Position numbers and translations under genes: made by a program
Notes under the pieces: generated by a model
Seen by the model: the letters and a program-made list of their open reading frames with translations, nothing else
Databases searched by the model: none
Told to the model about the DNA's origin: nothing
Part shown: positions 24,197 to 53,301 of the stretch, one piece after another
How the letters are laid out: every line of letters begins with the position of its first letter
How positions within the stretch are numbered: position 1 is the stretch's first letter
Source of the DNA: an uncultured virus (IMG/VR IMGVR_UViG_3300042691_010759)
Lineage: Duplodnaviria > Heunggongvirae > Uroviricota > Caudoviricetes
Length of the DNA: 58,099 nt
IMG/VR virus record: IMGVR_UViG_3300042691_010759
Strand: one strand, 5' to 3'

Positions 24197-27100
24197 TACC
24201 TAGAACTTAATAGATTATTATTAACAACAACTATAACTACCATATTTCTATTCCCAGAAACTCTACGTCTCAACAGAACATTTGTAATGTAGTGACGAAA
24301 CTTCTTTCTTTCTAGCTCAAATTTATCATAATTTAAGTTAGTAGGATTCAAAGTCTTAACATATCCATTTGGAGATGTGTTAAAGATAACTCTTTCAGCT
24401 ACACTAAACTCACCTCTGTCATCTGTAATATCCCAAAACTGATTGAAGCGATACTTCTGTTCTTCTTTGGAATATAAGATGTCAATGTTATTAAAGTTTA
24501 TAATAGGATACGCAATAATCCCTGGTGCATTATTCTTTGGCTTTAAATTCAATCGTAACAACCCAGAACACTGCTCTGTATTGTAAACAATAGCTTCATC
24601 AAAGTTAAAGTCTAAGTCATGGAATCTGTCATAGCAATTTTGGTCATACTTATAAACTTCCATGTAATACTCAATGTTTCTTAGAGTATTAACTGTTGTT
24701 TTACTTGTAGCCGCAATTTCAATTTCAAATGGATAGTCTGTCCCGTAGAAATTACAGAAACTATCACATCTATCATTGTGTACCCAAATACCATTATCAT
24801 TAGTAGTCATAAAAGTATTCTTACTAGCTAGGGTTAAATCCGGATGCCAGTCATGGTAAGAAACCCATATCTTATTTTTTGGATCATAGCTAAATGTCCA
24901 AGAAGCATCTTCAAAATATCTAGGATCTCCTAGCTCAACACGTAATACTTTATTAACTAAGAACACACGGCCGTCAACATAATCTACTTGATCAGCAATA
25001 TCTTTTCTAAGAGCGTAATCTTTTTTACAAAAGAATACTATCTGATCTGTATTATCAAATACAGATTGACAACCAATACCTACTACAGGATTATCTACAA
25101 GTTCAAATTCAGGAAAATCTTTTAACAACTGATATGGTAGGTAGGTAGCAAACCACCACTTCATATTTAAGTTTGATATTTCAGAAAGAGCACTTGTGAC
25201 TTGGAAAATCTTACCTTGGTTCTGACTCATGTAAAACATTCCAAGCGGAGTATTAACTATTGATAGTCTATTTTGACAAGAACCATATTCATTTGGTTCA
25301 TCAACATTTACTAAATTTTGAAGAGGCTGTGAAAATAAACCTCCATCTCCAATTGTAAGTTTTAGATTACTATCTGTTTCTAACTGATCAACACCGGCAA
25401 AGAATATCGGACTTTCTGTTTCAAATAATAAGATTGCTCCACTCTTAGATATAGGATGTATTCCCGTTACCTTACTTGAGAAGTCTTTATAGTTAGCTGC
25501 TAAATAAACTCTCCAGTAATCTTTCTTGTTTTCCTGGTCTTGAGGTAAAGAATAGATTACCCGTTTTGGTCTGTATATATAACACTTCTCTGCAACTTTA
25601 GGATCATACGTTGGTTCCTGTAAAAATCCCCAAGGTTGATAGTTATTGAACAGCTTACTTACACTTAGAGAATAATCATACTTGTAGTAGTTACCAAACT
25701 TTACGTATGGTGGTTTAAACATCTCTCTAAGATCTGTATACTGTTCTCTATCGTAATGTCTTTGATAAGGTAAAGCATCCCAATCACGGTAGTCAAGATT
25801 AATCTCACTCTCTACAAAGAAGTCTTTAACTCCAGAATTGAATAGATAAAAGAACGCATCTGTGATACCAAATCGCCAAGGCACTCCACCATTGCGGCGG
25901 TCAAATGCAAATTTACGGGACGGTATACTAATTTGTGTAAAATCAAATCCAGATGTAATAACGTTTCCTATAGAATTAATGAACTCATTAAAATCAAAAG
26001 CTTCGGTATCCATCCAAAACTTTGGATGGGGAAGCATCTTATAAAAACGGTAATCAAACTCAGTACCATTTGGTAAGTCATACAACCACTCATAGAAGAA
26101 GAACATGGTATTCTTTTCTGTGTATCTTCCTACATACGTATCACCATTAAATAAGACCTCTGTTTTAGTCTGGGATATATCTGTTGGACATGTGGAAACA
26201 GGAACCTGAATAATTCCTCTGAGCTGTCCATATTGATTTCCTAGACGTTGTTTTAATGCAACATAGTGACCACTAGCCGTGGTTTGGAAATTCTTTGAGA
26301 CATTAGCATCAGTTTCATTGTCCCATTCAATACCATTCGTTCCTGCAACATCGCTAAATGTTTTTTGTGTTGTATCTGTAACTGTAGGATCTGAAAAAGT
26401 ATCTTCAGTTTCAACTACAACTGTTCTGCTTCTAAAAATGTTATTAATTCTATAATTACTAAAATCCTGTAATATAGGATCTAGATAAACTTCTTCTTTA
26501 ATACCTCTTCGTATATTTCCAATAGAAGGTCTTTTATATTGATTATAAAAACCATGTGATACATACTGAAGAGCATATTGTCTCCAAGGTAGCCAAGCTT
26601 GAATAAGTTTGATAAAATCATTAATACCAGTACTCCAATCACTTACAAATAATGGTGCATTATTTAAAAAACGTAATGGACCAGGTAAGGCTGTCCAATC
26701 TGGTTCTATCCAATCAATTTCATAATAACCAGACTGAGATCCAGGAGATAGTACAGAAGCACTACTTGTTCCCCAAACCTGATTTAAAAAACCTTCCCAA
26801 GGATTAAAACTTCCTAATGCACCGCCTAATGCTGTAAAATCTCCTGTTAAATAATTTGTTATCCATAATGCTTCTGCTCCTTGAGCGGATCCAAATTCTG
26901 CAATCGTAGCAGCTGAAGAACCTGTACCTAAACCAATAGGTTGATTACCTGCTCCTGCAGGACCTAAAAATACTCCACCTAAGTTAAGTCCTCTACCCGG
27001 AATCCATTTAATTCTTTTATTGCCATCTTTAGTATGGCTTTTACGCATACCATATGACAATCCCGCAAGAGCTGCGAGTATAAAAGCCGTATTAGATATG

Positions 27101-29130
27101 AGCTTGAATTTAGGATGCTTATCTGGGAATTGGAAGTTACCTTCAACATTACCCCAAAATTCACCATAAATCTTTACTTCCTTATTAGAAAGGAACGGAT
27201 TTCTAAAGTTTGTTTCTGGTGAATGAAATGTAAAGACATCCTGCCGGTATCCTGTATAAGGTTCATGCTCTTGAATATAATAATTAAATGGACAAAGACT
27301 ACAGTTAACTGTCGCAGACTCATTTAAGAACTTATCACTACCAAGATAGTTATATGGGTAGTTAGGATATAATCCCTGGCGTGTTGAAAAGTTATCAGGG
27401 ATCTTATATTCACGCATATTATTAATCATTCCTTTTGCAAAGACTGATTTATTACCTTCTCTAGATCCGCGTAAAATTTCATATCCAACTACTCCTGGAA
27501 TTGGAACACCGTTATTATCAACCGGCGGAAGAATATTATTAAACTGAACACTCATGATTCTAATTCTAGAACCATTATTAGTAAAGTGATTTGTAGTATC
27601 TCCTACGGTATCTGTAGCATTCTCTGGAAACTTATGATGACGTATTGGCTTACCACATAAATCAAAATCAGTGTTTGTAGTATTTCCTATGTTAACGCCG
27701 TTCTCATCAACATAAGTAGCATTCCATATTTCAGGTTGATTATCATCATAGAACTCTGTAGATTCCCAATAAGCCATTTCACCACCAGCAATGATCTGAC
27801 CGCCGTCTGGTAAAGTACTTGTAGGATATGCAAAATCTCTTGACGCAGTATTATAAACACGCCATCTAAAAGGAGTTAATCCATCATTGATATCTACTTG
27901 TGAGTCCTGATTAAAAACTAAAGCCGTATCAAAAGGTGTAGCTACTCTACCGGGAATATGATATGACGCACTCCTATCTCCTGTATTATACACCCAACGT
28001 ATAAAGAAAGCATATACCTCGTCACGTAAATATCCTGTGTTAGTTCCGCCTTTTCTGTAATAATCAGCAGGATATTCAACTGCCACCCAATTAGATTCAA
28101 TCTGATTAGCTAAAGGCTGATAGTTAAAATCAAATCTTTCTCTAGGACCTGTTCTGATTAAGTAAGATCCATTCTTAAATATACCATCTGATTTTTCTAC
28201 AACCGGTGTACGTAAAAGAATATCCTGAATACTAATATCAGCCCATGTAGTAATAAAAGAATCAATAGCAATTCTCTTTTGACGCGTGCTATAAAAACCA
28301 ACTCTTCTAGCCTGGGTAGCTTCAGCTACACGTTGAACTAAGACAAGTTCAAATTCTTCAAAGATAGAGTCATCTGCATCAACAACAATTTCTAAAGAAG
28401 AAGACCGGTTCTCATGTGTAAATAATCCTTGTATATTAGACGGCATAGAATATTCTGTTACACGCTGTCCATTAAGAACGTATGCACCTACTACATAGTA
28501 AGAACCATTAAGTAACTCACCACTAGTAGGACCTACCTCTATCTGAAAACAAAGACTATCAATAAGAGGAGCAATACGTAACTTTTCACAATTTAATTGA
28601 TCTGTATCTACACACTCAATACATCCGCCAGGATCTGCACCATTATCATCCGTACAATTTTGTATCCACGGCGGATTATCTAAATTCATTGTCCTATCAG
28701 GATTAAGAGCATCCGCCCAATAAACTTGCTTAGTACAATCAAAGTTAGTTCTAGACTGACCTATAATAAGATAATCCTTATTAAAGCTTAGACATGGATC
28801 ATTAACAACTGTTCTATAAGTACAACCATCCTCATCAAACACACCAATCTCAGAGTTACTATCATCAGTACTATATATAGCCCACTCTGCTTTATCTAAA
28901 TGTATTGCACCAATAATAGTATAAGGGACTAATTGGCATAATCTATTAGACGCTTCATTACTTAGCTCAGCAAGATCTCCTACTACACTATTGTTAACAG
29001 CATTCCTAGCACCTATCCAAGATGCTTCTGCTGTATACATTCCTTTTGCGTCTTTTCCTATTCCTTTAAGGAAAGTACTTATCTCTCCGGAAGATGTATT
29101 AGTTAGCTTGCTTGATGATTTCTTAGCCAT
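24196..29130 (-). CDS. Muzzle / tail stabilization protein (crAss Tstab-like, 1644 aa)
   Basis: Size, position after the ring proteins, and motifs such as ARNAVN, VYWAD..NPDR, GYLRDEVYAFFI.W and SWTFSYDP...WVSYHDW.P typical of crAss muzzle proteins. Confidence 0.8.
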   Translation of the reverse strand: MAKKSSSKLTNTSSGEISTFLKGIGKDAKGMYTAEASWIGARNAVNNSVVGDLAELSNEASNRLCQLVPYTIIGAIHLDKAEWAIYSTDDSNSEIGVFDEDGCTYRTVVNDPCLSFNKDYLIIGQSRTNFDCTKQVYWADALNPDRTMNLDNPPWIQNCTDDNGADPGGCIECVDTDQLNCEKLRIAPLIDSLCFQIEVGPTSGELLNGSYYVVGAYVLNGQRVTEYSMPSNIQGLFTHENRSSSLEIVVDADDSIFEEFELVLVQRVAEATQARRVGFYSTRQKRIAIDSFITTWADISIQDILLRTPVVEKSDGIFKNGSYLIRTGPRERFDFNYQPLANQIESNWVAVEYPADYYRKGGTNTGYLRDEVYAFFIRWVYNTGDRSASYHIPGRVATPFDTALVFNQDSQVDINDGLTPFRWRVYNTASRDFAYPTSTLPDGGQIIAGGEMAYWESTEFYDDNQPEIWNATYVDENGVNIGNTTNTDFDLCGKPIRHHKFPENATDTVGDTTNHFTNNGSRIRIMSVQFNNILPPVDNNGVPIPGVVGYEILRGSREGNKSVFAKGMINNMREYKIPDNFSTRQGLYPNYPYNYLGSDKFLNESATVNCSLCPFNYYIQEHEPYTGYRQDVFTFHSPETNFRNPFLSNKEVKIYGEFWGNVEGNFQFPDKHPKFKLISNTAFILAALAGLSYGMRKSHTKDGNKRIKWIPGRGLNLGGVFLGPAGAGNQPIGLGTGSSAATIAEFGSAQGAEALWITNYLTGDFTALGGALGSFNPWEGFLNQVWGTSSASVLSPGSQSGYYEIDWIEPDWTALPGPLRFLNNAPLFVSDWSTGINDFIKLIQAWLPWRQYALQYVSHGFYNQYKRPSIGNIRRGIKEEVYLDPILQDFSNYRINNIFRSRTVVVETEDTFSDPTVTDTTQKTFSDVAGTNGIEWDNETDANVSKNFQTTASGHYVALKQRLGNQYGQLRGIIQVPVSTCPTDISQTKTEVLFNGDTYVGRYTEKNTMFFFYEWLYDLPNGTEFDYRFYKMLPHPKFWMDTEAFDFNEFINSIGNVITSGFDFTQISIPSRKFAFDRRNGGVPWRFGITDAFFYLFNSGVKDFFVESEINLDYRDWDALPYQRHYDREQYTDLREMFKPPYVKFGNYYKYDYSLSVSKLFNNYQPWGFLQEPTYDPKVAEKCYIYRPKRVIYSLPQDQENKKDYWRVYLAANYKDFSSKVTGIHPISKSGAILLFETESPIFFAGVDQLETDSNLKLTIGDGGLFSQPLQNLVNVDEPNEYGSCQNRLSIVNTPLGMFYMSQNQGKIFQVTSALSEISNLNMKWWFATYLPYQLLKDFPEFELVDNPVVGIGCQSVFDNTDQIVFFCKKDYALRKDIADQVDYVDGRVFLVNKVLRVELGDPRYFEDASWTFSYDPKNKIWVSYHDWHPDLTLASKNTFMTTNDNGIWVHNDRCDSFCNFYGTDYPFEIEIAATSKTTVNTLRNIEYYMEVYKYDQNCYDRFHDLDFNFDEAIVYNTEQCSGLLRLNLKPKNNAPGIIAYPIINFNNIDILYSKEEQKYRFNQFWDITDDRGEFSVAERVIFNTSPNGYVKTLNPTNLNYDKFELERKKFRHYITNVLLRRRVSGNRNMVVIVVVNNNLLSSR

Positions 29131-29136
29131 TGCAAA

Positions 29137-30135
29137 TTATAATCTTGTGAATTTATCTAGGGGACCTCCGTAACTTCTAAACATAGAGTAATACTTATTA
29201 TAGAATGCTTTTCTGTTCATTCTATACACTTCACGCATCTCCTCAAAGTTTGGCGTATTAACAATACTCAATGCATCATTGCGAGATGCTCGGTATCTTG
29301 TTTCTATAAGCTGAATCTTACTTGGATTAACTTGCTCATCATTCATCACAAGGTTCTCTAAAATCCTTTGCTTCAATGCATATTCATAATACTCATTAAG
29401 CTTTGGATGATTAGGTACAAGAAGATTACCCTCATGGTCTTCCATCATACCTTGATAGTTAAGGTATACTTTACCTGTTTCAAAGTTAGTATGCAGCCAG
29501 TTACCTTCTTTTATTTCTCCTCTTAACTCACCATCCCAATATAAATTAGGACAATGCTTATCCACATTCTTTGAGTTAGTTATTTTTAAGGGAGCCATTT
29601 GGTTATAATATCGTGTTTCAGATTTAAGGACCTGAACAATTTGTGTCACTTCTCCCTTACAAGTAAGTGTACAAGAATCCGGATTATTACAACAAGAATT
29701 ACAAGTATCATTATATACAGGTTCGCCACATTGTCCACATGGATTAGTGGGTTCTTGTGGAATAATTACATCAGTACAAAAATCAATTTCTCTAGGCGGG
29801 GCTTGTTGATACTCTGGAGTTACAGTACCTATAGGTCTTTCTTCAATGTGTGTACCTTGAGGATAATAGGTTTTAACCTCATACTTATTACATACAAACG
29901 CAAAGTTTAGAACATAGAAATCATTAGGTAATCTTACCTTATGTTTTTCTACCTCAAGCATAACTTCTTTTGTTTGATAGATTCTCAAACCTAAATCATA
30001 GTTTACTCTTTGAGCAACTTTGATTAATTCTTGAGGTTCTATGATTCCCTCCAGCTGATACTTCTTGAAATCATTAGAAGCATCAGCAAAGAGTTCATCA
30101 AAGGTTCTGTATTGTAAGGTATAGTTGTAGCTCAT
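29137..30135 (-). CDS. Tail ring / tubular protein (R1-like) with Cys-rich insertion
   Basis: Immediately upstream of the muzzle; WLHTNFETGKVYLNYQG..EDHEGNLLVP...YYEYALK motif typical of crAss tail tubular proteins. Confidence 0.7.
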   Translation of the reverse strand: MSYNYTLQYRTFDELFADASNDFKKYQLEGIIEPQELIKVAQRVNYDLGLRIYQTKEVMLEVEKHKVRLPNDFYVLNFAFVCNKYEVKTYYPQGTHIEERPIGTVTPEYQQAPPREIDFCTDVIIPQEPTNPCGQCGEPVYNDTCNSCCNNPDSCTLTCKGEVTQIVQVLKSETRYYNQMAPLKITNSKNVDKHCPNLYWDGELRGEIKEGNWLHTNFETGKVYLNYQGMMEDHEGNLLVPNHPKLNEYYEYALKQRILENLVMNDEQVNPSKIQLIETRYRASRNDALSIVNTPNFEEMREVYRMNRKAFYNKYYSMFRSYGGPLDKFTRL

Positions 30136-30218
30136 TTCTTTTTCTTTTTAGCTGTATTAGCAATAACTACTTTACCAGATTTGCTATAGATGGGATGTGC
30201 TTTAAACTTTGTTGCCAT
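30132..30218 (-). CDS. Small basic peptide (28 aa, MATKFKAHPIYSKSGKVVIANTAKKKKK)
   Basis: Not in the ORF track. Fills the gap exactly, with a TAATG overlap upstream and an ATGA overlap downstream. Confidence 0.55.
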   Translation of the reverse strand: MATKFKAHPIYSKSGKVVIANTAKKKKK

Positions 30219-30892
30219 TATCTCATAATATTTTGACCATCATCAGCTCCATCTGAAGGGATTTGGCCGGCCGTTAGTATTTCTCTAAGTACAAATTGTT
30301 CAATCTCAGAAAACATATGTTCTGGAATTGCCAACGTTCTGTCTTGTTCTGATCTACATTCATCAGACTGATCACTACAATTTAAAGCTTCTGTGCTATC
30401 TTCAAATATAGCTTGTAAACGAATCGCTTCCCATTCTACATCTGGTACATAAATGTAACCATCTAAATACCAATAATACTTATTCTTGTTATACTTAAAT
30501 GAACTAGTCTTAGTCATATTAGTATAAACTGTAGGATAAGTTCTTATAAGAGATACAGAATAATCTAAGGAAGATACTTCACGTATTACCGGACCCATTG
30601 TTGTTTCAAGAAACTTTGGAAGTTTTTCTTTTGTTCTTTTGATGGTACAATTAGTTTTGATCCCAATACAGCAAGCTTCTACTTTATCTACTTCAATTAA
30701 TTCAACACACGGGATCTCACTAAAGAGACTTGTGTATTTAAAAATCTCATTCATCATAGACTCTCTCTTAATAAGAGTCTTGGCATATTTCCATATGAGC
30801 TGATAAATAAAACGATCCGTAATAAAGGCATCTTCTTTAACGCTTTTAATTACGTTTCGCACTCTTGATATTGCTTCTGCTATTGTAGACAT
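30218..30892 (-). CDS. Tail ring protein (R2-like)
   Basis: ORF track; PCVELIEVD...C..KRTKEKLP...YYWYLDGYIY...IFED pattern; synteny. Confidence 0.65.
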   Translation of the reverse strand: MSTIAEAISRVRNVIKSVKEDAFITDRFIYQLIWKYAKTLIKRESMMNEIFKYTSLFSEIPCVELIEVDKVEACCIGIKTNCTIKRTKEKLPKFLETTMGPVIREVSSLDYSVSLIRTYPTVYTNMTKTSSFKYNKNKYYWYLDGYIYVPDVEWEAIRLQAIFEDSTEALNCSDQSDECRSEQDRTLAIPEHMFSEIEQFVLREILTAGQIPSDGADDGQNIMR

Positions 30893-30894
30893 CT

Positions 30895-31482
30895 TTACAT
30901 TTTAAATTCATTATATCCATCTGGAATAACTGGTTTTAATGTACGTTTGTAATCATCCTTACGATACTTATCAAATCTAATTGATATTTTCTCTGTAGGA
31001 CTTACAAGCGCATATTTCGCCCAATTTTCCTTATATGCTTCTGAAGCTATTTTCCTAAATACTTTAGAAGCTCTAAAAGACCATACCTGCTTATTAGCAA
31101 ATGGGTACTTAGTATTATGATTAGTATAAAATATCTTGAGTAGCTTATTATCAGAATCCCAATTTTTATGAACCGTTCTTACCCCATACTCAAGAGACTT
31201 TTTAAAATCTACATTTTTCTTTTTAGCTGGGGGACAGCTTGCCATAAAAATAAATCCTAATCCTTCAGGTAACTCAATACCATCTCTATTATCAATTATA
31301 CCGTTTACTACTTCTGCATTGAATGTCATTACTATATCCTTAAACTCCTTAAGCTCAAGACCTAAATATTCCGGATACTTTTTTTTAAATTCTTTTAATG
31401 TATTTGTAGTTAATACACTTATCCGTTTTGTTCTAAATCTTGGGCCTTTAACGTCTGGTTTTTTAATTTCATTCATGAGCAT
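30895..31482 (-). CDS. Divergent IHF/HU-like DNA-binding protein
   Basis: Helical N-terminus followed by GIELPEGLGFIF and a late F+ASK.F+K motif, as in crAss structural-module IHF homologues; basic. Confidence 0.6.
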   Translation of the reverse strand: MLMNEIKKPDVKGPRFRTKRISVLTTNTLKEFKKKYPEYLGLELKEFKDIVMTFNAEVVNGIIDNRDGIELPEGLGFIFMASCPPAKKKNVDFKKSLEYGVRTVHKNWDSDNKLLKIFYTNHNTKYPFANKQVWSFRASKVFRKIASEAYKENWAKYALVSPTEKISIRFDKYRKDDYKRTLKPVIPDGYNEFKM

Positions 31483-31491
31483 AGTCCTATT

Positions 31492-31500
31492 ATAATATAC
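31492..31500 (-). promoter_or_regulatory. GTATATTAT putative phage promoter box
   Basis: The same 9-mer recurs in intergenic gaps at 34855, 39996 and 45468. This copy lies downstream of a terminator. Confidence 0.55.
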
Positions 31501-31561
31501 TGATTTTTTTTAACTTATTCAAGCTTCTATTTCAAAGGTAAACTAATTTTCTTATTTATTG

Positions 31562-31596
31562 TAAAGTAAAAGCCCTGAACTATACAATTCAGGGCT
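31562..31596 (-). terminator. Rho-independent terminator
   Basis: Minus strand AGCCCTGAA-TTGTATAG-TTCAGGGCT followed by TTTACTTT. Confidence 0.85.
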
Positions 31597-31637
31597 CTCT
31601 TGTCAGTCACAGTAAACCAACAAACTATGACATATTT
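31562..31637 (-). ncRNA. Candidate 3'-UTR-derived small RNA with anti-(AAACCAACAA) seed loop
   Basis: Hairpin GTCATAGT-[TTGTTGGTTT]-ACTGTGAC (31631-31606) followed by a terminator. The loop is the reverse complement of a motif at five start codons. Confidence 0.5.
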
Positions 31638-32600
31638 TTAGCAGACATTGTCTATAATTACTAATCCCGGATCTCCCGCACTAACACTAGCAAGTATTAC
31701 GCAATTTGCAATAACTACATTAGCAGCTCCTGCTTCAATAACTTCTCTCCAAAGTACTATGGGAGTAGGAGTAGCTGTTTCAGAATTTGCTCCATTACAG
31801 GTTGTATAATATAAACTGATATCATCACCAGTAGGATTGCTAACTATTAATTGAGCACAAGGCTGACAATTACAAGATTCTTTACCAGGAAAGAGTGGTG
31901 TTACCGTACCTACTCCTGTTACAAATGGATCTGGTACAGAAGTAGCACATATTACTACAAGTTCTCCTACTGCTAGCGGTGGCCTAAATACTGAACCAGG
32001 AGGCGATGGATTACCGTCATTATTAGTACCATCACAAGCACCATACAAAAGAGAACAAGTATCAAGAATAGCTGTCAAGTCTGCATTAATACCACCTACT
32101 GTATTAATTGTAAGAGTAGGCGGAACAGAGTAAGTAAAACCATTATTACCTGGTAGTGGTACTACTGTAAGAATTGCTCCTAAACCATCTACATTAGAAA
32201 TTTGCCAAATTACATCGGTTCCATTAGCAGTAATTGTTTCCCCTATAAGGTATCCTGAACCAGGAACATCAATTGAAATTTGAGCTACACTAGTTTCATC
32301 ACAATTTATTTGATATGGTAAACAAGGATCCGCTTGTTCTGGAATTAGAATTGTAAATTGAGATGCCGCATCCGGAAAACCATCTCCATTACTGTCTACA
32401 GGATCTGAGCATTGTGCCAATACATAACCTTGATATAAAGCTCCCTCACAAAAATTAGTAGGTACTGTGATAAGAAGTGTGTTTACTCCAACAGTACAGT
32501 TTACGGTTTGGCATGTAAATGTAGCCGGTCCAGGTTGTAGTCTATAACATACATCGTGTGGTCCCGCCCATCCTGCTGTCCATGAAATTTGTATATCCAT
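31638..32600 (-). CDS. Cys-rich beta-structured virion/fibre protein (320 aa)
   Basis: ORF track; FN3-like N-terminus; PGSGY..G...GAIL.V....GF.Y..PPT.TI..GG fibre-type repeat; many Cys. Confidence 0.55.
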   Translation of the reverse strand: MDIQISWTAGWAGPHDVCYRLQPGPATFTCQTVNCTVGVNTLLITVPTNFCEGALYQGYVLAQCSDPVDSNGDGFPDAASQFTILIPEQADPCLPYQINCDETSVAQISIDVPGSGYLIGETITANGTDVIWQISNVDGLGAILTVVPLPGNNGFTYSVPPTLTINTVGGINADLTAILDTCSLLYGACDGTNNDGNPSPPGSVFRPPLAVGELVVICATSVPDPFVTGVGTVTPLFPGKESCNCQPCAQLIVSNPTGDDISLYYTTCNGANSETATPTPIVLWREVIEAGAANVVIANCVILASVSAGDPGLVIIDNVC

Positions 32601-32630
32601 TATATTTATTTTTAAGTACTAAAACTTTTA

Positions 32631-33344
32631 TTATAGAGGATAAGGATAAACCTTGATCTCAATTGATGTATTGTCTAAAATATCATCAGATGGAACAAAA
32701 GCTGTCGTATATGTTCTAATAGCTATGTTATTATTATCTTGATAATATGCTCTTACAATACCTAGTTTTTTTCCAACATGATTTACTAAAACATGAGTAT
32801 TAGGAGTAAAACCAAACGGAAGAGCTAATACATATTCACCAACGCCAAAGCGAGCTGGCTGAGGTATACCACTCTGAAACTGATCGTTAAGCGTAGTCTC
32901 AAATAGATAAGCAAAAGGATCTTGTCCACCTTCTTGTACTAAATTAGCTCTATACACTTGATATATAGGAGGAGGTGTAATTAACCCACAAAAATAAGTT
33001 ACTACATCTTGTAATGCCTCCGTGAATGGTGTTCCCGCTGGCGATACCCCACCTATAGGTTGTTCAGGACACTGAATACCTTCAGCTAAAACAGGTTCTC
33101 CTGAGTTTTGGCAGAAGTAATTAACAATATTAGCTAAAGCTTCAGCTACAGTATCATCTTGATTAACTACAGGTGTTTCATCACATACAATATCTTCACC
33201 TGTATAGTAAATACAAGATGCATTAAATGTTTCTGAACAAGGATTTGAATCTGGACAATTAACACCATCCCCACAAGGAGGAGGTGTTAATAGTCCTGTA
33301 TCTTTACATCCGCATGGAACTTTATGTCCGCAATCTTTTCCCAT
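32631..33344 (-). CDS. Cys-rich fibre-associated protein (237 aa)
   Basis: Shares C.YYTGEDI.C...DTV.EAL..IV.YFC motif with the upstream gene; C-terminal YRA.L.Q.G...P...R.GVG.Y...SIEIKVY fibre-type domain. Confidence 0.55.
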   Translation of the reverse strand: MGKDCGHKVPCGCKDTGLLTPPPCGDGVNCPDSNPCSETFNASCIYYTGEDIVCDETPVVNQDDTVAEALANIVNYFCQNSGEPVLAEGIQCPEQPIGGVSPAGTPFTEALQDVVTYFCGLITPPPIYQVYRANLVQEGGQDPFAYLFETTLNDQFQSGIPQPARFGVGEYVLALPFGFTPNTHVLVNHVGKKLGIVRAYYQDNNNIAIRTYTTAFVPSDDILDNTSIEIKVYPYPL

Positions 33345-33362
33345 TTCTTTTAGTTTTTATAA

Positions 33363-34850
33363 TTAAGCTACCGGTACTACTAGTACAGCACTTGCATTTG
33401 TTGGAGGAACACATGGTGCTGTTATAGTTGTCACTAATTGATAAGGACAATCTGCGGATCCTACAACAATCCTAACATAATAGTCAGTGCCTTGCGTTAA
33501 TCCACTAAATGTTCCAGAAATTAATTGACCAACAGATGTTACATTAGTAGACTGAGAACTGATCATTACAGACTGTGTAGCATTCCATAATTGAACTGTT
33601 ACTAATTGTGGTACAGCACCAATCCAAGTTGTTGAATAGTTAATACTTGTAAGATTAGGTACTAACTGAACTACTGGACAATTAATTGCAGCAGGTGCAA
33701 CATCTGAAACAAACCCTTGACATTCTGTTCCTGTAGCAGGATCAAATACACAATACGTAAATGCGGCCGTAATATCATAATTACCATTTACAGGTGTTGC
33801 ATTTAAAGGAACACTTAAACCTGTAGGATTATTTAGCAATGATACTAATGGTGTTGTAATTGTTAATGTTCCACCTAAGCTATCCGTAAGTGTAAGTACA
33901 GATCCGCCAACACAGTCTGTATAACCAACTGGCAAAGATCCTGTAAGATATACTATAACTTCTGTAGGTGTAGAAATAATAGCATTCATTTGAACAATTA
34001 CACCTGCACATCCTGTTTCACAACAAGTAGTTTGAATAGTCTGAATAGAAGCCCTGATATCACATAGCGTTAACCAAATATTTGTTACAGCATCTGACAT
34101 GTTTGCAACAACATCCGCCCAACCAGGAATATCCTGCATTGTTCCAGATCCTGACAATTGTGGAGAATTGTTAAGTCCTGCACACTGTCTTAGAATAGCT
34201 TGGTAAATATCTTGAGGAGTACCAGTAGCTGTTCTTAATTCACAAAACTGTTGTTCTAAAGCATCTAATACTACATTCATTGCTGTAGGATTAGAAGGAA
34301 GCACGCAGTTTGGTTGAACCAGAGGTAAAACTACTTCAGGATCTGTTTGATTTTCTAGAATGGTAATTCTTTCCTCATGATCTAATAAAGTAGAATTAAT
34401 TGTATCAATCTGTCCAATCAATTGACATACTCTATTTCCAATAGCAACTACGTAATCTTTTAGTTGCATAGTTGTAATAGTATCACCTTGGGGATTCTGA
34501 TAATAGAAAGATGAACAAATTGTCACTTCACAATCAGGACATCCTAAAGAGCCACCGGGATTTACAACAGGATCTTGATTACAACAAGTACATACTTTAT
34601 CTATCAAGAGTTGAATAAGATCCTCAAAATCTTTGGGACCACACTCAAGCAAATTAAAGCATGACAAATCATAATTGTCAATATTGAATGTTTCTAACAA
34701 ATCACAAAGTTCCGTAGCTAACTTGTAAACAACATCAGTAACCGAATCTCCTTTACATAGATTTATGCACTCAATGTCCGGACCTTGCCAAACAACGCAG
34801 TTTGATGAAACTGGGCTGCAAGATTCTTTATTTAGATTTAAAGGCTTCAT
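33363..34850 (-). CDS. Cys-rich fibre protein with coiled-coil segments and C-terminal FN3-like domain (495 aa)
   Basis: SSNCVVWQGPDIEC...GDSVTDVV.KL...LC motif; heptad stretch IDTINSTLLDHEERITILE; TFSGLTQGTDYYVRI. Confidence 0.6.
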   Translation of the reverse strand: MKPLNLNKESCSPVSSNCVVWQGPDIECINLCKGDSVTDVVYKLATELCDLLETFNIDNYDLSCFNLLECGPKDFEDLIQLLIDKVCTCCNQDPVVNPGGSLGCPDCEVTICSSFYYQNPQGDTITTMQLKDYVVAIGNRVCQLIGQIDTINSTLLDHEERITILENQTDPEVVLPLVQPNCVLPSNPTAMNVVLDALEQQFCELRTATGTPQDIYQAILRQCAGLNNSPQLSGSGTMQDIPGWADVVANMSDAVTNIWLTLCDIRASIQTIQTTCCETGCAGVIVQMNAIISTPTEVIVYLTGSLPVGYTDCVGGSVLTLTDSLGGTLTITTPLVSLLNNPTGLSVPLNATPVNGNYDITAAFTYCVFDPATGTECQGFVSDVAPAAINCPVVQLVPNLTSINYSTTWIGAVPQLVTVQLWNATQSVMISSQSTNVTSVGQLISGTFSGLTQGTDYYVRIVVGSADCPYQLVTTITAPCVPPTNASAVLVVPVA

Positions 34851-34854
34851 ATAT

Positions 34855-34863
34855 ATAATATAC
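34855..34863 (-). promoter_or_regulatory. GTATATTAT putative phage promoter box
   Basis: Recurrent 9-mer in a 22-nt intergenic gap, only 4 nt from the ATG. Confidence 0.45.
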
Positions 34864-34872
34864 TTAAAATAT

Positions 34873-37836
34873 TTAACAATTACAAGGTACTAGAGTTTCT
34901 ATTACATTAAAGTCTGTTCCACCAGTTGCAACAAAGTCAGTAGGTAGTCTTCCTGGCTTACTGCATACATATACATTTGTTGTTCCTCTTTGTGCTGGAA
35001 TATCATACTGTTGAACAATATCATTACAGTCTAGATACGTAAAATAGACTCCTGAATTTCCTCCAGAATCTAAAAATACAGAATACAAAACAAATCCTGT
35101 TTGTTCACCACCACAATAGTCTATTACAAATGACTCAAAATAATCAGGATCAACTGTATATATTCCTATAGGACATGTACCTACTACATCAAATGTGCCT
35201 ATCTCATCTCCACCATCATAAGCGTATAATAACCATGATCCTGGAGGATCTGTAGTATTCCAGGTTTCGTTATAGATTTCATAATCTATATTATCTATTG
35301 TAAAAGAATAATATGAAGTACCATTTAGATATGTTCCTGTTGGTGGAACTACGATCTCTATAGGTGCACCACCTGTTGGTGTTGCATTAATTTTTATACA
35401 GTCTTCACATGGTAGGAATACTGGAGCTGTACAATTAGTTTGACATTCTAGTAATGTTTGATATGTTCCTCCTGTTCCTTGTACTTCTACACAATTAAAA
35501 TCTACACAGTTATATGATATATCCGGTGGACAGCCAGCATCTGTACAATTTTCATAAATTGTTCCAGGTGTCCAATATACTGTAACAAGTCTATGAGTAA
35601 TCTCAACTACTGTATAACACACATCGTCAATAACAATTACGTTTCCTAATACATCATATTGATTATCAATTCTAACTACTTCTGTTACTTCAGGCTCGTT
35701 ACATTTTTGAAGAATGTATCTTGTTAATGGAGGACAAGCTGTTGTACAACAAGTTACTGAAATATTTGTAGGACAGCAATTTACACTTAAAGGGCAACAA
35801 TCAAAGTTTGGATCAAGTAATGCATCAAGATTTAGCATTTCTTTTTTGATTTGATACTTTCGCATATCAATATCACAACAAGTTTTAATTCCGTATCTAA
35901 CGGCAATCATTTCTTGATATACTGCTTCACTAAATTTACAATTTACTTTTTCATAATAGTCAGCAGGACATCCTGGAGTATTATAACCAGGTCTTACAGA
36001 TCTGCTAGACAATTCAAATACCGGTTCAGGAACCGGCTGAGGCAAACACTCTTCACAAAGATTAAAACAATCTAAAACAACAATAGGTTCCGTAGGCCAT
36101 ACTTCATCTTTACAAAGGTACTTTTCTACAGTTGCACAATGAACATTACCTAACTGATCCTGCCATTGAATAACTTTACCTATATAAGCTTCAAATGAAG
36201 GAGTCTCTGTAGATATAGTTGGATACTGCTCACAATCAATTAGCTTATAACAAGGCTTTAAGCATTCCGGACAATCGCTAACTGCTGCTACTCCTTGCAT
36301 GATACCTTCCCAATCAGCAATAAACGCATCTTCAGGAATATCTGTTCTTAAAATTTCAGTTAACTTTAAACAACCCCTTATATTTTCACTAGCTTCATTT
36401 TCAATATACGTTATAACTAAGTTGATGATATCATTTGGACAAGGTACAAAAACGGGATTTGGTATTGTATAACCTGGAAAACAATCTCCATCAAAACTTA
36501 AATAAATAGTTCCTTGAAAAGCCGGATCTCCGCTACTTCCAGGCCAATCTATTGGTAAATCTGTAACACAATCATTTAGAGTATAATAAGTATTACATAT
36601 ATTACAATTATCAGATTGATGATCTTCTGCAACAAAAACATTTGTTACGCTAACTTCCTCACAAGGCTGAACATCTAGAACCGTGAAACAACCAAGCTCA
36701 TTTAAAATATTTAACGGATCACTGAAACTATAAATATTACCAATTACAAGAAGCGTAGTTTCTTCTGGATCTAATGATATTTCAAGTGGTGTACCAACGC
36801 CATTACATGGATTAATAAGATAACAACAAGGTGTTGGTATTTGAGTATCTTTAAATGTACAAGTTGGTGTAGTTCCACAAACATCTCCTTCTATAACACT
36901 ACCATTACATAACCACTGACCACTAGTATCTGTAAGATCCGGAATATCATTATCAATATAAGATTGCGTAGTAAATATGATATAAGGTAAAAGATCTTCA
37001 TATACATTACCACAAGTTGCTGAATCAGGAAAATCAGGATCTACAAAATCCGCAGTATCTGTTAAGTTAGTTTGAAATTCTGATAATGTAATATCATAAA
37101 TTTCTCCAGCAAATGATGCGGCAGATGAAACATTAAACCCTTCTAGAGTAATTGTATGTTGTCCTGCAGTTAATGTAATCGGGATAACATGCCAAAATAG
37201 AAATGGTCCTCTTTGATTAGTTGTTCCATTTAAAGTAACAATTAGATTACCATCTACATATAATCGGCATTCATTATCGCCACCTAAACCAATTAAATAT
37301 TGCTTAGATGTTTCAAGATTAACACAAAAATCAAATGATACACTTCCTTGTGGTGCAGCACACACAAATGGTACATCTAGCCAAATACCTGCATTATTTA
37401 AACGTCCGTTATATTGTGCTCCAGTAATTAAAGGATCAATACAATTTATAGGTAATGTAACATCGTAATCTAAACCCCATAAAGAACTTTTATGTCCAGG
37501 TTTTAAAATAGCACTAGGATTTCCAGGATTTGCAGGATTTGCTGCACCTAACAAAATTTCAATAGCTCCTCCAATATTATCTTCTAAATAATAATCTGAG
37601 GAACTATTAGTTGTCCAATTTCCTGATATAGGAAAAGTATAACCGCTAACATCTTCATACAAACGTAATCCGTCTGCACTATATCCTTGATTTACACATC
37701 CTTTAACAATAGGAATAGTAGCTCCTGTCCAAATTGCATCTTCTACAATTTCAGATTCGCAAAGTCCCGTTTTAGGATTATATTGGTATCCTTCAGGACA
37801 ACCATTACAAGGCGGTAAAGGATTAGAGTTAGCCAT
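34873..37836 (-). CDS. Large Cys-rich virion protein (987 aa) with PA14-like domain and Cys repeat modules
   Basis: GLGGDNECRLYVDG...ITLTAGQHTITLEGFN (PA14-like); CPEGYQY...C; about 59 Cys by manual count. Confidence 0.6.
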   Translation of the reverse strand: MANSNPLPPCNGCPEGYQYNPKTGLCESEIVEDAIWTGATIPIVKGCVNQGYSADGLRLYEDVSGYTFPISGNWTTNSSSDYYLEDNIGGAIEILLGAANPANPGNPSAILKPGHKSSLWGLDYDVTLPINCIDPLITGAQYNGRLNNAGIWLDVPFVCAAPQGSVSFDFCVNLETSKQYLIGLGGDNECRLYVDGNLIVTLNGTTNQRGPFLFWHVIPITLTAGQHTITLEGFNVSSAASFAGEIYDITLSEFQTNLTDTADFVDPDFPDSATCGNVYEDLLPYIIFTTQSYIDNDIPDLTDTSGQWLCNGSVIEGDVCGTTPTCTFKDTQIPTPCCYLINPCNGVGTPLEISLDPEETTLLVIGNIYSFSDPLNILNELGCFTVLDVQPCEEVSVTNVFVAEDHQSDNCNICNTYYTLNDCVTDLPIDWPGSSGDPAFQGTIYLSFDGDCFPGYTIPNPVFVPCPNDIINLVITYIENEASENIRGCLKLTEILRTDIPEDAFIADWEGIMQGVAAVSDCPECLKPCYKLIDCEQYPTISTETPSFEAYIGKVIQWQDQLGNVHCATVEKYLCKDEVWPTEPIVVLDCFNLCEECLPQPVPEPVFELSSRSVRPGYNTPGCPADYYEKVNCKFSEAVYQEMIAVRYGIKTCCDIDMRKYQIKKEMLNLDALLDPNFDCCPLSVNCCPTNISVTCCTTACPPLTRYILQKCNEPEVTEVVRIDNQYDVLGNVIVIDDVCYTVVEITHRLVTVYWTPGTIYENCTDAGCPPDISYNCVDFNCVEVQGTGGTYQTLLECQTNCTAPVFLPCEDCIKINATPTGGAPIEIVVPPTGTYLNGTSYYSFTIDNIDYEIYNETWNTTDPPGSWLLYAYDGGDEIGTFDVVGTCPIGIYTVDPDYFESFVIDYCGGEQTGFVLYSVFLDSGGNSGVYFTYLDCNDIVQQYDIPAQRGTTNVYVCSKPGRLPTDFVATGGTDFNVIETLVPCNC

Positions 37837-37841
37837 ATGTT

Positions 37842-37970
37842 TTATTTTTTTACAGTAACAAGCTTGGCATTATATGCCGCAACACAATTTGCGCAACATT
37901 CTTTGCCATCTTTTGCTACTCGTTTTTTACATCCACAACTTAAAGTTGATCCGCAGTTTGAACATTTCAT
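37842..37970 (-). CDS. Small Cys-rich (zinc-finger/metallothionein-like) protein, 42 aa
   Basis: Not in the ORF track: MKCSNCGSTLSCGCKKRVAKDGKECCANCVAAYNAKLVTVKK*. Fills the gap and is preceded by the AAACCAACAA motif. Confidence 0.75.
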   Translation of the reverse strand: MKCSNCGSTLSCGCKKRVAKDGKECCANCVAAYNAKLVTVKK

Positions 37971-37989
37971 ATTTGTTGGTTTTTAATTG

Positions 37990-38538
37990 TTAATGACAAG
38001 TTTTACAATCAAATTTACTAAGAAGTTTCATAGCATAGTTGTATAATTCCATTCCTTTTTTTGGTTCATGGCAAAATTCAACTTTTGCTTTAGCAGCTTC
38101 TAAATATGATTTAATCTTTGCTAAATCACGCATCTTCTTATCTATCTCAGCTGTTGGTTCACAAGCTGCAATATCTAATTCGCATAATGCTTCTTTATAG
38201 CAAGTTAGCGCTTTAGTGATCCGGAGATGGTTATATTCCACATATACTAAATTGTTTGGGGCCACGCTATACTTAATGATATAAATACCGTCTGGTAAAT
38301 TTTGTAAAGACGTTCCGCAGTCAACAGTTTGTATATCTAAATCACATGCAGATAGATTTAGAATAAAGTTTTGTTCTATTCCATCAAACTGAATTGCATA
38401 ATTGAACCCAGGTAATGTTATTTCCAATATGGGACAATCATATGGAACAGTTGGACTATAAACGCTAGTATCAACTAACTTTAGTACGCAACTATTCATT
38501 GTGTCCGGTGCTTCTACGCTTAAAAAATGTTGAGCCAT
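37990..38538 (-). CDS. Putative tail hub / fibre-attachment protein (182 aa)
   Basis: L.LVDTS.Y...LEITLPGF...LPDGIY.IKYSVAP motif followed by a helical C-terminus; crAss synteny. Confidence 0.55.
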   Translation of the reverse strand: MAQHFLSVEAPDTMNSCVLKLVDTSVYSPTVPYDCPILEITLPGFNYAIQFDGIEQNFILNLSACDLDIQTVDCGTSLQNLPDGIYIIKYSVAPNNLVYVEYNHLRITKALTCYKEALCELDIAACEPTAEIDKKMRDLAKIKSYLEAAKAKVEFCHEPKKGMELYNYAMKLLSKFDCKTCH

Positions 38539-38550
38539 ACTCCTAAGATA

Positions 38551-38592
38551 AAAAAAAGGAGAGAAGAGTTTTCACTCCACTCTCCTTTTTTT
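38551..38592 (-). terminator. Rho-independent terminator (potentially bidirectional)
   Basis: aaaaaaaggagag...gagt-tttc-actc...ctctccttttttt inverted repeat downstream of the 448-aa gene. Confidence 0.85.
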
Positions 38593-38614
38593 AGTTTAAC
38601 AATGGTTATTATTA

Positions 38615-39961
38615 TTACGGTGCCGGTACAAGTGCCGCAATATCAAATACACAAGCTGTTGGTGTTAGAATCTCAACTTCTTCGCAATCTGTATTACAAG
38701 CAGCAAATAGGTTTGTGAAATAAGTTTCTAACGTTACAGAATCTGGTGTAACAATATCCAACAAGTACTGATCGTTATCAAATGTTCCAGAAGGATTATT
38801 GAAACGTGGTACAGAATGCAACAAGAACACACGGTCATACATTGCAGTTCTATTAACTACATTCCAAATATCTGTACCTTGAGTAATCTCACGGATACGA
38901 AGATCAGAATGCATAAAGTTTTGCAAGTAAGATTCATGAAGAATTACATCGCGTGCTACTGTCTCACCAAGACCTTGTGCTTGAATTCCAGGACAAGTCT
39001 CAACTACACACAATCCTTCAAATGTACACGGATCACCATTCAAATCAACTTCAGAAGCATAAATTTGAATTGGCTCAAGTCCATAGTAATCTGTAGGACA
39101 GAAAGTACAATCGTTGAATTGAGTATCAACATATGCACCAATCAAAATCAAACCTGCAGAAGTTACAGTTGGAGGAATGTTAGCCCAAATCTGGTTAACC
39201 GGTAATCCTAGTTCAGCTGCTACAGTAGCATCTTGAGCATAAGCAACACCATCAACAACAACTACTGGACGTACAAAATCCTTAAGATAAGGATTACCAG
39301 CATCAGAAGCTGCATTATAGTTTGTTGTAGTTACAGGTAAACCTGCAATTTGCTGAGCAAAAGACAAGTAAACAGTAGCTGGATCTACTGGAGTTGGATT
39401 GTCCGGATCATCACAACATCCTGTATAAACTCCAAGAGTTTGATATAAGTTGTGATTAGCAAAACGCAAAGCTGCCGTACCTTTGATATCAATTCTTAGG
39501 TAGTACGTTTCTTCACAGATAAACTCCTTATTACATTCAAGACCGTTATCCGGAGTACCACCAATTTGAAGAACCGCTGCAGAAGCCATTCCTGCCTTTT
39601 GAACCCAGGCTTTACGTAAGTACTTAGGATTGATTTCCTTAGACTTGTTTGATGCTTGGTATCCACCATGAAAAGGTCCCTGCTTGTCCTTAATCTTAAT
39701 AGCTGCACTAGCTACATAGAAAGGACAACATTCTGGAGATTCTGTAAGAATAGGAAGAGACAAATCTTTATTTGCTCCTTTTGCTCCAAAGATACCTGTA
39801 GTACCAGGTCCCAAAAGATAAGCAGCGCTAGTGTTCTTCAGTTCACTTACATGAACACCCGCTGTAGTCAAAATTCCGTTAACCGTTGATGCACTTGGGG
39901 CAATAGTGTCTGCCTTTGTTGCGATAAACGTTTTACGGAACGCGTGATTAAAGTAACTCAT
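38615..39961 (-). CDS. Abundant structural protein, probably auxiliary capsid protein (448 aa)
   Basis: Has its own promoter-like box and terminator, suggesting high expression; position matches the crAss auxiliary capsid gene; C.ETYYLRIDIKG motif. Confidence 0.55.
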   Translation of the reverse strand: MSYFNHAFRKTFIATKADTIAPSASTVNGILTTAGVHVSELKNTSAAYLLGPGTTGIFGAKGANKDLSLPILTESPECCPFYVASAAIKIKDKQGPFHGGYQASNKSKEINPKYLRKAWVQKAGMASAAVLQIGGTPDNGLECNKEFICEETYYLRIDIKGTAALRFANHNLYQTLGVYTGCCDDPDNPTPVDPATVYLSFAQQIAGLPVTTTNYNAASDAGNPYLKDFVRPVVVVDGVAYAQDATVAAELGLPVNQIWANIPPTVTSAGLILIGAYVDTQFNDCTFCPTDYYGLEPIQIYASEVDLNGDPCTFEGLCVVETCPGIQAQGLGETVARDVILHESYLQNFMHSDLRIREITQGTDIWNVVNRTAMYDRVFLLHSVPRFNNPSGTFDNDQYLLDIVTPDSVTLETYFTNLFAACNTDCEEVEILTPTACVFDIAALVPAP

Positions 39962-39995
39962 TTTTCTTTTTTTTTAATTATACAAACATTACACT

Positions 39996-40032
39996 ATAAT
40001 ATACACATTTTCTTTTACAAATAAAAGAAAAT
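39996..40032 (-). promoter_or_regulatory. GTATATTAT box (39996-40004) preceded by an 11-bp inverted repeat (40007-40032)
   Basis: attttctttta-caaa-taaaagaaaat perfect inverted repeat next to the recurrent 9-mer. Confidence 0.55.
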
Positions 40033-40041
40033 TGCAAATTT

Positions 40042-40746
40042 TTAATTATTTGATTCAACTTGAGAAGATGCTGTTTGTTGCTGATTAAATGATTCAATAT
40101 CACCAGCTAGAATTTTGGCAGCTTCATCAATGAATAATTCAACAATATCATCCTTGAATTCACACTCAACATTCACAGTAGATAGAACTTGAGTATAAGG
40201 ATCTACACAACCCTGAATTTCAATACGTGTAGGCTGTCTATAATATGAAAGACTAGCGGTATCAATATCAAATTCATTATTTGTATAGATTCTTACCTTA
40301 TTTCCTTTGAGAGTACAAAAGGTTTCTCCCCAGGATAAACTAGGTTTTTTAATCTCATCTCTTAGTAACTCATCTACATTTGCTTCTTCAGCAAGATAAA
40401 TTACCATTCTTTTTGGCTTGTCACAACATTCTGTACCAGCTTTGCTACTAAGTCTTTTCCATTCAAAGTAGTTAGCCGGTAAGTCATTTGACTCAAAATA
40501 GAGATCCCTCTTTTGCAAAGGGATCTCTAATTCAGTCAGAAGAATTTGTAAATCATCAATACGGCGCTTAGATTGCTCATCTCCAGTCTGCTTAATATTC
40601 ATACCGTGAAGATTTCTACGACACCACGCAACTTGTCCTTTATTGAACGCTTCAACAATTTGCCAGCACTCAATATTATCATAATCGCTTGAGGCTAGTT
40701 TATTTAGTCTCTGCTGAATCTTAAGTTGGATAGTTGCGTTATTCAT
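40042..40746 (-). CDS. Head-tail ring protein (R3-like, 234 aa)
   Basis: LNKLAS......I...FNKGQ...EQSKRRIDDLQ.L...Y.R.P..I...CEF....E..IDEA pattern typical of crAss ring proteins. Confidence 0.7.
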   Translation of the reverse strand: MNNATIQLKIQQRLNKLASSDYDNIECWQIVEAFNKGQVAWCRRNLHGMNIKQTGDEQSKRRIDDLQILLTELEIPLQKRDLYFESNDLPANYFEWKRLSSKAGTECCDKPKRMVIYLAEEANVDELLRDEIKKPSLSWGETFCTLKGNKVRIYTNNEFDIDTASLSYYRQPTRIEIQGCVDPYTQVLSTVNVECEFKDDIVELFIDEAAKILAGDIESFNQQQTASSQVESNN

Positions 40747-42410: not shown

Positions 42411-42473
42411 ACTATTTATTTGTTGGTTTAATAGTGCCTGCCGGTGTGCGAAGTCCGGTAACGCGTTCAGGCA
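42411..42473 (-). promoter_or_regulatory. Structured leader: GC-rich stem plus hairpin presenting AAACCAACAA
   Basis: TGCCTG...CAGGCA outer stem (42473-42435) with internal CCGG/CCGG, then ACTATT-[AAACCAACAAATA]-AATAGT just before the ATG. Confidence 0.45.
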
Positions 42474-45437: not shown

Positions 45438-45476
45438 AATTGTTGGTTTTTTTATGACTGTACATTAATAATATAC
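45434..45476 (-). promoter_or_regulatory. GTATATTAT box (45468-45476) and AUG-sequestering hairpin with AAACCAACAA loop
   Basis: TCATAA-[AAAAACCAACAA]-TTATGA, where the 3' arm contains the start codon. Confidence 0.55.
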
Positions 45477-52905: not shown

Positions 52906-52926
52906 AATTGTTGGTTTAAGTTTTGT

Positions 52927-53301
52927 TTAATCTGGAGTAGCTAATCTGCGAGATTTTTTTTCTGTTATCTCAGCTTCTTCTTTTACTACATGCATTTGTT
53001 CAGGATGCTGGGCTTGTTTCATGGCTTCTTCATGAGCTTTTTCATACTCAGCCCTTGCTTGCTCCATTGCCTGTTCCTGCTGTTCCATATGTGCAAATAA
53101 TTGAGCCGTTTTAGCTATTGCATTATAACGCTTAAACTTTGCTTCTTCTATTTCTGCAAGAAGTGTTTCGTACTGGGATTGGATTTTTAAGAAGCCTATT
53201 TCTTCTTTATAGTCTGCGACAATTTTACTTCGCATTTTTTTTACCTCTTCTGGAGATAATGCTTTTTCTTGAGGTGTTCCCTCTGCTTGTTGGTTTTCCA
53301 T
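52927..53301 (-). CDS. Hypothetical coiled-coil protein (124 aa)
   Basis: ORF track; E/Q/A/K-rich helical sequence. Confidence 0.75.
   Translation of the reverse strand: MENQQAEGTPQEKALSPEEVKKMRSKIVADYKEEIGFLKIQSQYETLLAEIEEAKFKRYNAIAKTAQLFAHMEQQEQAMEQARAEYEKAHEEAMKQAQHPEQMHVVKEEAEITEKKSRRLATPD

Follow-up and report, generated by a model that had tools for sequence, protein, structure and literature searches.

The window, that is, the whole 58,099-nt stretch of DNA analyzed here, comes from an uncultured freshwater crAss-like phage, and all its long open reading frames (ORFs) are on the minus strand. The landmark genes, assigned by PHROG families, are the following:

42520-44145 (-), major head protein (MCP)
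45550-48339 (-), portal
48336-50552 (-), terminase large subunit

Several further virion proteins were recognized by PHROG, and the window contains ORFs of 972-2119 aa; terminase, portal, and MCP of crAss-type families are thus found together with giant downstream proteins, as in crAss-like phages. The only tblastn matches of the MCP, about 25-28% identical, were to Lbo-JY46, csAssE-Sib, and phages of Flavobacterium and Cellulophaga, the best named relative being Leptolyngbya phage Lbo-JY46 (27.7%). No close DNA relatives were found among named phages, and one collected contig (G001), 8.7 kb long, is an identical piece of this phage.

The element considered in this study (minus strand, 31640-31561) is located right after a variable late gene encoding a 320-aa protein. 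This protein belongs to one unnamed PHROGs family, and has no Pfam match and no relatives in viral contigs. The element consists of the following parts, in the order of transcription:

31638..31640 (-), stop codon TAA of the 320-aa upstream gene (31638-32600), separated by AAATAT from the 5' arm of hairpin 1 (sequence)
31624..31631 (-), 5' arm of hairpin 1, GTCATAGT (= GUCAUAGU) (sequence and RNAfold; stem backed by 72 distinct sequences)
31614..31623 (-), loop TTGTTGGTTT (= UUGUUGGUUU), the proposed seed (sequence)
31606..31613 (-), 3' arm of hairpin 1, ACTGTGAC (= ACUGUGAC) (sequence, RNAfold, and stem covariation)
31597..31605 (-), 9-nt linker TGACAAGAG (= UGACAAGAG), which together with the end of the 3' arm gives GACUGAC, the second complementary segment
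31561..31599 (-), presumed intrinsic terminator, a GC-rich stem-loop AGCCCTGAA/TTGTATAG/TTCAGGGCT (31596-31571) followed by TTTACTTT (RNAfold)

On the sense strand, RNAfold forms both hairpins at -29.0 kcal/mol (z -4.73; 0/200 shuffles equally stable), the first with an 8-bp stem, corresponding to 7 bp in the alignment of relatives, and the second with a 14-bp stem followed by the U-tract UUUUACUUU / TTTTACTTT. The plus-strand fold is weaker, with an interrupted stem (-21.0 kcal/mol, z -3.24, 1/200 shuffles), as is expected from the U-G pair in the sense-strand stem. The initial annotation had described the same layout on the minus strand, from the stop codon and AAATAT through arm, loop, arm, and linker to a terminator, and had argued from the closing G-U pair for a minus-strand RNA; both the sequence and the folds bear this out, and G-U pairs also occur in the stems of relatives. 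The loop is predicted to be unpaired with a probability of 0.78-0.98. At the position of the second hairpin the relatives have GGGG and T-runs, and a simple consensus terminator scan returned 0 sites. In most relatives, the linker retains ACAA(C/G) as an A/C-rich core. This core could pair with UUGU of the loop in an alternative fold, RNAfold's choice for a few of them; it may serve for self-masking or as a protein or RNase site. The assembled contigs of one metatranscriptome run (X20) placed over 26500-46400 cover parts of the MCP and neighboring genes, with none over 31148-31811; the contigs of one DNA run (X2) were placed over the same range.

Relatives were collected from IMG/VR as 80 loci anchored on the MCP and as 12 + 80 loci anchored on a 224-aa virion gene, located about 0.7 kb downstream of the hairpin. 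The exact loop is found 674-745 nt upstream of the 224-aa gene in 59 of the 78 loci with enough upstream DNA. The remaining loci have loop variants of one or two bases, or carry the element 1.5-1.9 kb upstream of the 224-aa gene, a spacing that suggests an inserted gene. Since an ad-hoc structural scan proved noisy, with false negatives and positives in coding regions, a covariance model built from 72 distinct element sequences was used instead. Of 92 loci, a set that takes in the training sequences and four contigs present twice, 90 contain exactly one match each, and every match is on the sense strand; in the two loci without a match, the upstream DNA is just 32 and 437 nt long. Among contigs selected through the MCP alone, 14 of 16 match the model at E<=0.001, and a single strong match is present in the window and in each of seven genomes or long stretches (G002-G008), including the complete genomes G002 and G003. 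Lack of conservation, which the initial annotation had listed as fatal to its proposal, is thereby excluded. In one relative, a second, weak match (30.1 bits) lies distant from the usual place (G016:C1:96486-96563 (-), L213).

Among the 72 sequences, GTTGG is invariant in the loop and TTGTTGGTT is conserved in at least 90%, while the stem sequences differ. Nevertheless, the stem is kept: 89.4% of 500 cells of the 7-bp stem are paired, as compared with 24-48% when the partner is slid, and neither the observed pairing nor the covariation score was reached by any of 500 shuffles. Compensatory changes on both sides are seen in five of the seven pairs. Two other measures fall within the shuffle range, namely, the number of pairs with both-side changes (229/500) and the number of further pair types (53/500). 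The same stem is predicted independently by RNAalifold. Finally, 78 of the 500 stem cells are G-U or U-G; these would be A-C mismatches on the other strand, which indicates selection on the sense-strand RNA. By these comparative measures, the hairpin is selected as an RNA on the sense strand.

The surroundings of the element are those of a 3' UTR. In 66 of 70 elements, the GTTGG core follows the end of an ORF (at least 80 open codons) at a distance of 9-40 nt. The TAnnTTTG box, the consensus of the Bacteroidota-type -7 box, occurs upstream of 5 and downstream of 48 of the 70. Given the close upstream stop codon and no host-type promoter before the hairpin, we conclude from the sequences that the element is the tail of the upstream gene's mRNA, not a gene with its own recognizable promoter. 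Two features of 3'-UTR-borne small RNAs (sRNAs) are seen here, location at an mRNA 3' end, downstream of the stop codon and sharing the presumed terminator, and a conserved accessible seed against the start regions of several mRNAs. The initial annotation had offered an sRNA or the 3' end of the fibre mRNA; a conserved structured 3'-end RNA with a loop complementary to leaders is retained from this reading, but the label "fibre" is not. As for promoters within the phage, a GTATATTA-like motif lies at 45469-45476 (-), and similar motifs are found 10-30 nt upstream of the ATGs at 34850, 31482, 39961, and 20849. In relatives, the motif is found again 5' of the tagged 417-aa gene, where it often reads TTTG..TATATTA; it may be a late promoter.

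The complement of the loop, AAACCAACAA, has seven exact copies in the window, as compared with 0.18 expected, and 0/100 shuffles reach seven; its one-mismatch variants are not enriched there (11 versus 7.59 expected, with 15/100 shuffles reaching 11). Five copies are on the sense (minus) strand, four of them 2-10 nt 5' of start codons and one in codons 2-5. Of the two plus-strand copies, one is the hairpin itself. The other, at 18271-18280, corresponds to a second sense-strand TTGTTGGTTT inside a 1040-aa gene; it is coding, has no hairpin-terminator context, and does not score with the covariance model. The sense copies, below called tags when in leaders, and the adjoining segment are as follows:

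45440..45449 (-), leader tag AAACCAACAA of the 417-aa gene, which lies between portal and MCP; 2 nt 5' of its ATG at 45437
45455..45460 (-), CAGUCA 5' of the tag of the 417-aa gene, the complement of UGACUG in the 3' arm/linker
42420..42429 (-), leader tag of the 378-aa gene, which follows the MCP; 10 nt 5' of its ATG at 42409
37973..37982 (-), leader tag of the 42-aa Cys-rich ORF; 2 nt 5' of its ATG at 37970
52908..52917 (-), leader tag of the 121-aa gene; 2 nt 5' of its ATG at 52905
53287..53296 (-), 10-mer within the 124-aa gene (ATG at 53301), starting with the third base of codon 2 and reaching codon 5

All five tag positions had been given correctly in the initial annotation, and the count of the loop complement that it proposed as a check gave the excess reported above. 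The ATGGA-AAACCAACAA arrangement of the 124-aa gene is also present in several relatives. Three of 38 leaders in the window are tagged.

The tag is likewise tied to gene starts in the relatives. In 79 MCP-anchored loci (1.22 Mb), AAACCAACAA is found 137 times in the sense and once in the antisense orientation, and 96 of the 137 sense copies lie at most 20 nt upstream of an ATG opening an ORF of at least 35 aa, mostly 1-4 nt away from it; the reversed motif gives counts of 2 and 4 in the same loci. In nearly all relatives, the core AAACCAA(C) is found ahead of both neighbors of the MCP gene, the one on the portal side and the one that follows. A small Cys-rich ORF is often tagged as well, and tandem copies occur in some relatives. 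In genome G003, 11 of 157 leaders are tagged (0.5 expected), including those of opposite-strand genes; in genome G002 the tag is not among the top k-mers. As only a minority of genes is tagged, the tag is a regulon mark and not a general ribosome-binding signal of the phage. The predicted accessibility of tagged leaders (0.51-0.84) does not differ from that of 32 other genes (0.55 +/- 0.17). The earlier claim that the loop is antisense to start regions can thus be extended from one phage to the clade, where the complementarity is kept with a conserved, strand-specific, start-adjacent tag.

The products of the tagged genes could not be named by similarity, as no target protein has a Pfam match above the cut-off or a match in PDB sequence and profile searches. 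For instance, the 417-aa protein has only a sub-threshold Pfam match to DUF6511, and the 121-aa protein has no domain match; these results, and the unnamed PHROGs family of the 320-aa protein, leave the names scaffold, wHTH, and fibre of the initial annotation, respectively, without support. The predicted model of the 417-aa protein is mostly helical, with the first approximately 105 residues disordered (pLDDT 67.5), which would be compatible with a scaffold-like protein but is no proof of one. The model of the 378-aa protein (pLDDT 84.9) has no Foldseek match at E<=0.001. In its residues 308-377 (gene at 41273-42409, -), 62 C-terminal residues superpose on the RecA C-terminal domain (Z 9.4, rmsd 1.9, VIA-align), and the rest of the model has no convincing structural match. 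The 42-aa ORF (37845-37970, -), which falls under the 60-aa ORF cut-off, encodes eight Cys residues, and similar small Cys-rich ORFs follow the tag in relatives.

The predicted duplexes of the loop with the leaders of the five listed genes and with one further site have energies of -12.2 to -16.6 kcal/mol, as compared with a median of -6.75 for 40 starts. The further site, AACCGGCAAAC at about 53760-53775 (-) inside a 172-aa lysozyme-like gene, pairs with the loop via two G-U pairs (-14.3 kcal/mol) and ranks fourth among the 40 start regions; it was absent from the target list of the initial annotation. When the stem arms are included, full duplexes across the AUG of four targets reach -18.3 to -22.1 kcal/mol, as compared with 7.8 required to open the hairpin. 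Pairing of this kind, also proposed initially, is thus possible in this phage, but the 5' arm is different in most relatives, and so it is not a conserved feature.

Covariation between loop and tag, another expectation stated at the outset, was looked for without success. Of the 37 tags in seven genomes whose loops vary, 28 pair better with the canonical loop, five with their own, and four equally well; the peripheral loop variants are not mirrored in the tags. Support for the loop-tag pairing therefore comes from joint conservation.

A second complementary segment behaves differently. The junction of 3' arm and linker, GACUGAC (GAYUGAC in relatives), is complementary to GUCARU 5' of the tag; in the leader of the 417-aa gene, (G)UCAGUC(A) lies 5-10 nt upstream of the tag. 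Among 26 genomes with both regions, six combine junction GACUGAC with leader GUCAGU, three combine GAUUGAC with GUCAAU, 14 have neither, and three are discordant, so that the class of the junction equals that of the leader in 23/26, with the second site absent in 14/26. Self duplexes at this site average -8.01 kcal/mol versus -5.73 for cross pairs, and 0/20,000 permutations reach the self mean; the comparison ignores relatedness (related genomes share states), and as few as two evolutionary events may lie behind it. In the first 15 genomes alone, the values are -10.49 and -7.94. The switch from C-G to U-A is a compensatory change between loci approximately 14 kb apart, the closest natural counterpart here to compensatory mutations made at the bench. 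By sequence comparison, then, the 3' arm/linker co-varies with a segment upstream of one tag, that of the 417-aa gene, and this second site is limited to part of the clade.

Among cultured relatives, the most distant is Lbo-JY46 (PP438436.1), which has a weak syntenic match to the covariance model at 91570-91647 (-) (L198:33666-33743 (+); 26.3 bits, E 0.007-0.026). This is the best match in its genome: an A-U-rich hairpin with UUUGUUGGUUG, which has the same loop core, then a terminator; the homologue of the 224-aa gene follows 1.75 kb downstream. The tag AACCAACA is not enriched in the Lbo-JY46 genome, ATAAACAA is only about 2-fold (15 versus 7.5), and 8-mer complements are swamped by A/T-rich noise. 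The 221-aa protein of this phage has no relatives in viral contigs. Lbo-JY46 is recorded on a cyanobacterial host, and TAnnTTTG-like boxes (TATCTTTG, TAATTTTG, TAACTTTG), typical of Bacteroidota promoters, stand before many of its genes. A 19-nt degenerate pattern searched in GTDB genomes gave 28 stretches, none of which scores with the model at E<=0.01; these are chance matches. For the phage of the window, a Bacteroidota host is suggested by two sequence features only, the TAnnTTTG boxes and the A-rich leaders free of Shine-Dalgarno (SD) sequences. Two studies describe Bacteroidia ribosomes as ignoring SD sequences, with leader structure and upstream bases tuning initiation (PMC6847099, PMC9976891).

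Since the loop mirrors a tag standing just before the starts of several virion genes, the hairpin probably controls their translation through RNA pairing. The best reading, to which we assign a probability of roughly 0.6, is a base-pairing riboregulator carried on a 3' UTR, whose G/U-rich seed acts against C/A-rich leaders and reduces 30S loading. The 3' UTR of the last variable late gene would carry a structured RNA made of a 7-8 bp hairpin, an A/C-rich linker, and an intrinsic terminator, either as a released fragment of roughly 70 nt or still as part of the mRNA. Its loop UUGUUGGUU(U) would pair with AAACCAAC(AA), the C/A-rich tag located 1-12 nt 5' of the starts of, in this phage, the 417-aa, 378-aa, 42-aa Cys-rich, and 121-aa genes; for the 417-aa gene, the duplex would be extended by pairing of GACUGAC of the 3' arm/linker with GUCAGUC upstream of the tag. 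Covering an unstructured C/A-rich leader by the AUG could lower 30S loading in a host that does not use SD pairing, and the amount of the late tail-gene transcript might thereby throttle or time the synthesis of head-assembly proteins. Because the RNA would originate at the end of a unit of tail genes and the capsid gene has tagged genes on either side, the output of tail and head proteins could be coupled, which we offer as speculation.

Actual RNA-RNA pairing, action in trans, and repression are the three steps that we infer, the last of them for a host phylum that is only suggested, and activation is the main rival. The same pairing could have a positive effect, the RNA serving as an activator or adaptor that protects from nucleases, displaces a repressor, or recruits ribosomes in an SD-blind host. 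The comparative evidence for pairing applies equally to both signs of the effect; the tagged genes adjoin the MCP gene and are expected to be needed in quantity late, when the RNA, coming from a late unit, would be made; and some relatives have tandem tags. However, a duplex that comes within 1-12 nt of the AUG is normally an obstacle to 30S binding, tags made of A and C only should already be unstructured, so that with their ordinary predicted accessibility there is nothing obvious to open, and no ribosome-binding feature is seen in the hairpin RNA. We consider activation unlikely.

The constant location of the element before the terminator, at the 3' end and close to a stop codon, together with the single strand used by all genes of the window, would also suit a role in cis. 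This could be a long-range 5'-3' contact on one late transcript, comparable to the 3' elements of plant viruses, or only that of a 3' stabilizer or protein-binding hairpin with an incidental likeness to the tag. Yet the tags are 6-22 kb distant, beyond several terminator-like sites and promoter-like motifs, and those in G003 also stand before opposite-strand genes, and it is very unlikely that more than 100 genomes would keep an incidental 10-nt complement along with a second site that co-varies; a cis role is improbable. Finally, the plus strand of the locus, GTCAGTCAC-AGT-AAACCAACAA-ACT-ATG-AC, resembles the leader of the 417-aa gene, and a family of sites changing with its protein would also yield the second-site association, but the idea of a DNA-level inverted copy of the promoter and leader of that gene (GTCAGTCA...AAACCAACAA...ATG), a relic or an inverted regulator-binding site, is highly improbable, given a stem kept by compensatory and strand-specific G-U pairs, an ATG missing from the 5' arms of most relatives, sense-strand tags (137 to 1) tied to start codons and not to promoters, some of them following terminators, and an element that always adjoins a terminator. 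In particular, the inverted relic of the scaffold-gene start that the initial annotation had named as an alternative is excluded by the conserved single-copy sense-strand structure and the conserved strand-specific tag.

The repressing riboregulator favored here would combine a defined seed and tag with a small regulon and would be present in every relative examined, so that the post-transcriptional control of virion assembly in SD-independent hosts could be tested by simple reporters. The hairpin also provides a compact RNA marker for this freshwater phage clade. A bolder and quite unlikely extension is a translation address system private to the phage, in which one RNA from the end of the tail-fibre transcript reads an 8-10 nt tag and sets ribosome access, perhaps positively as a stand-in for SD/anti-SD pairing; if true, the output of head and tail would be stoichiometrically coupled across the whole crAss-like clade.

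Rfam 15, including GcvB and the phage C4 antisense RNA, has no match at the gathering score in the window, and at E<=10 the matches around the site are at chance level, the best being RAGATH-27 with 20.4 bits versus a gathering score of 76.1. The literature searches found no sRNA, antisense RNA, or other riboregulator of crAss-like phages, and for the motif string only primer and siRNA sequences were among the matches listed. Several known systems are nevertheless comparable. CpxQ and SroC are base-pairing sRNAs derived from 3' UTRs, and DapZ is cut from an mRNA 3' end and shares the terminator of that mRNA. The element resembles the CpxQ/SroC type in lying directly after a stop codon without a recognized promoter of its own, in sharing the presumed terminator of the mRNA, and in its conserved seed; the sRNAs of that type are processed, whereas the element is known from sequence. 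Among phage RNAs, the c4 antisense RNA of P1/P7 and the CI RNA of P4 act in trans, their exposed segments pairing with short repeated sites in the phages' own transcripts; they govern immunity and lysogeny, in P4 through transcription termination. In contrast, the proposed targets here belong to the virion and late genes of a crAss-like phage that is apparently lytic, and no relationship to these RNAs was seen in sequence or Rfam.

In the mode of recognition, a precedent is GcvB, which, according to PMC3879156, silences ACA-containing translation-enhancing sequences just upstream of ribosome-binding sites; there, and as proposed here, a single-stranded G/U-rich seed faces C/A-rich sequences near the starts of many mRNAs. 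Unlike the enterobacterial GcvB and DapZ, to which it has no homology by Rfam, the element would present its seed in a hairpin loop, is phage-encoded, and would target the phage's own genes in a likely host phylum that uses no SD. The trans-acting sRNAs of Bacteroides, such as GibS (PMC7366714), whose similarity was compared by the Rfam scan, differ in being host-encoded with their own promoters, and share with the proposed regulator both base pairing and a phylum without SD-led initiation.
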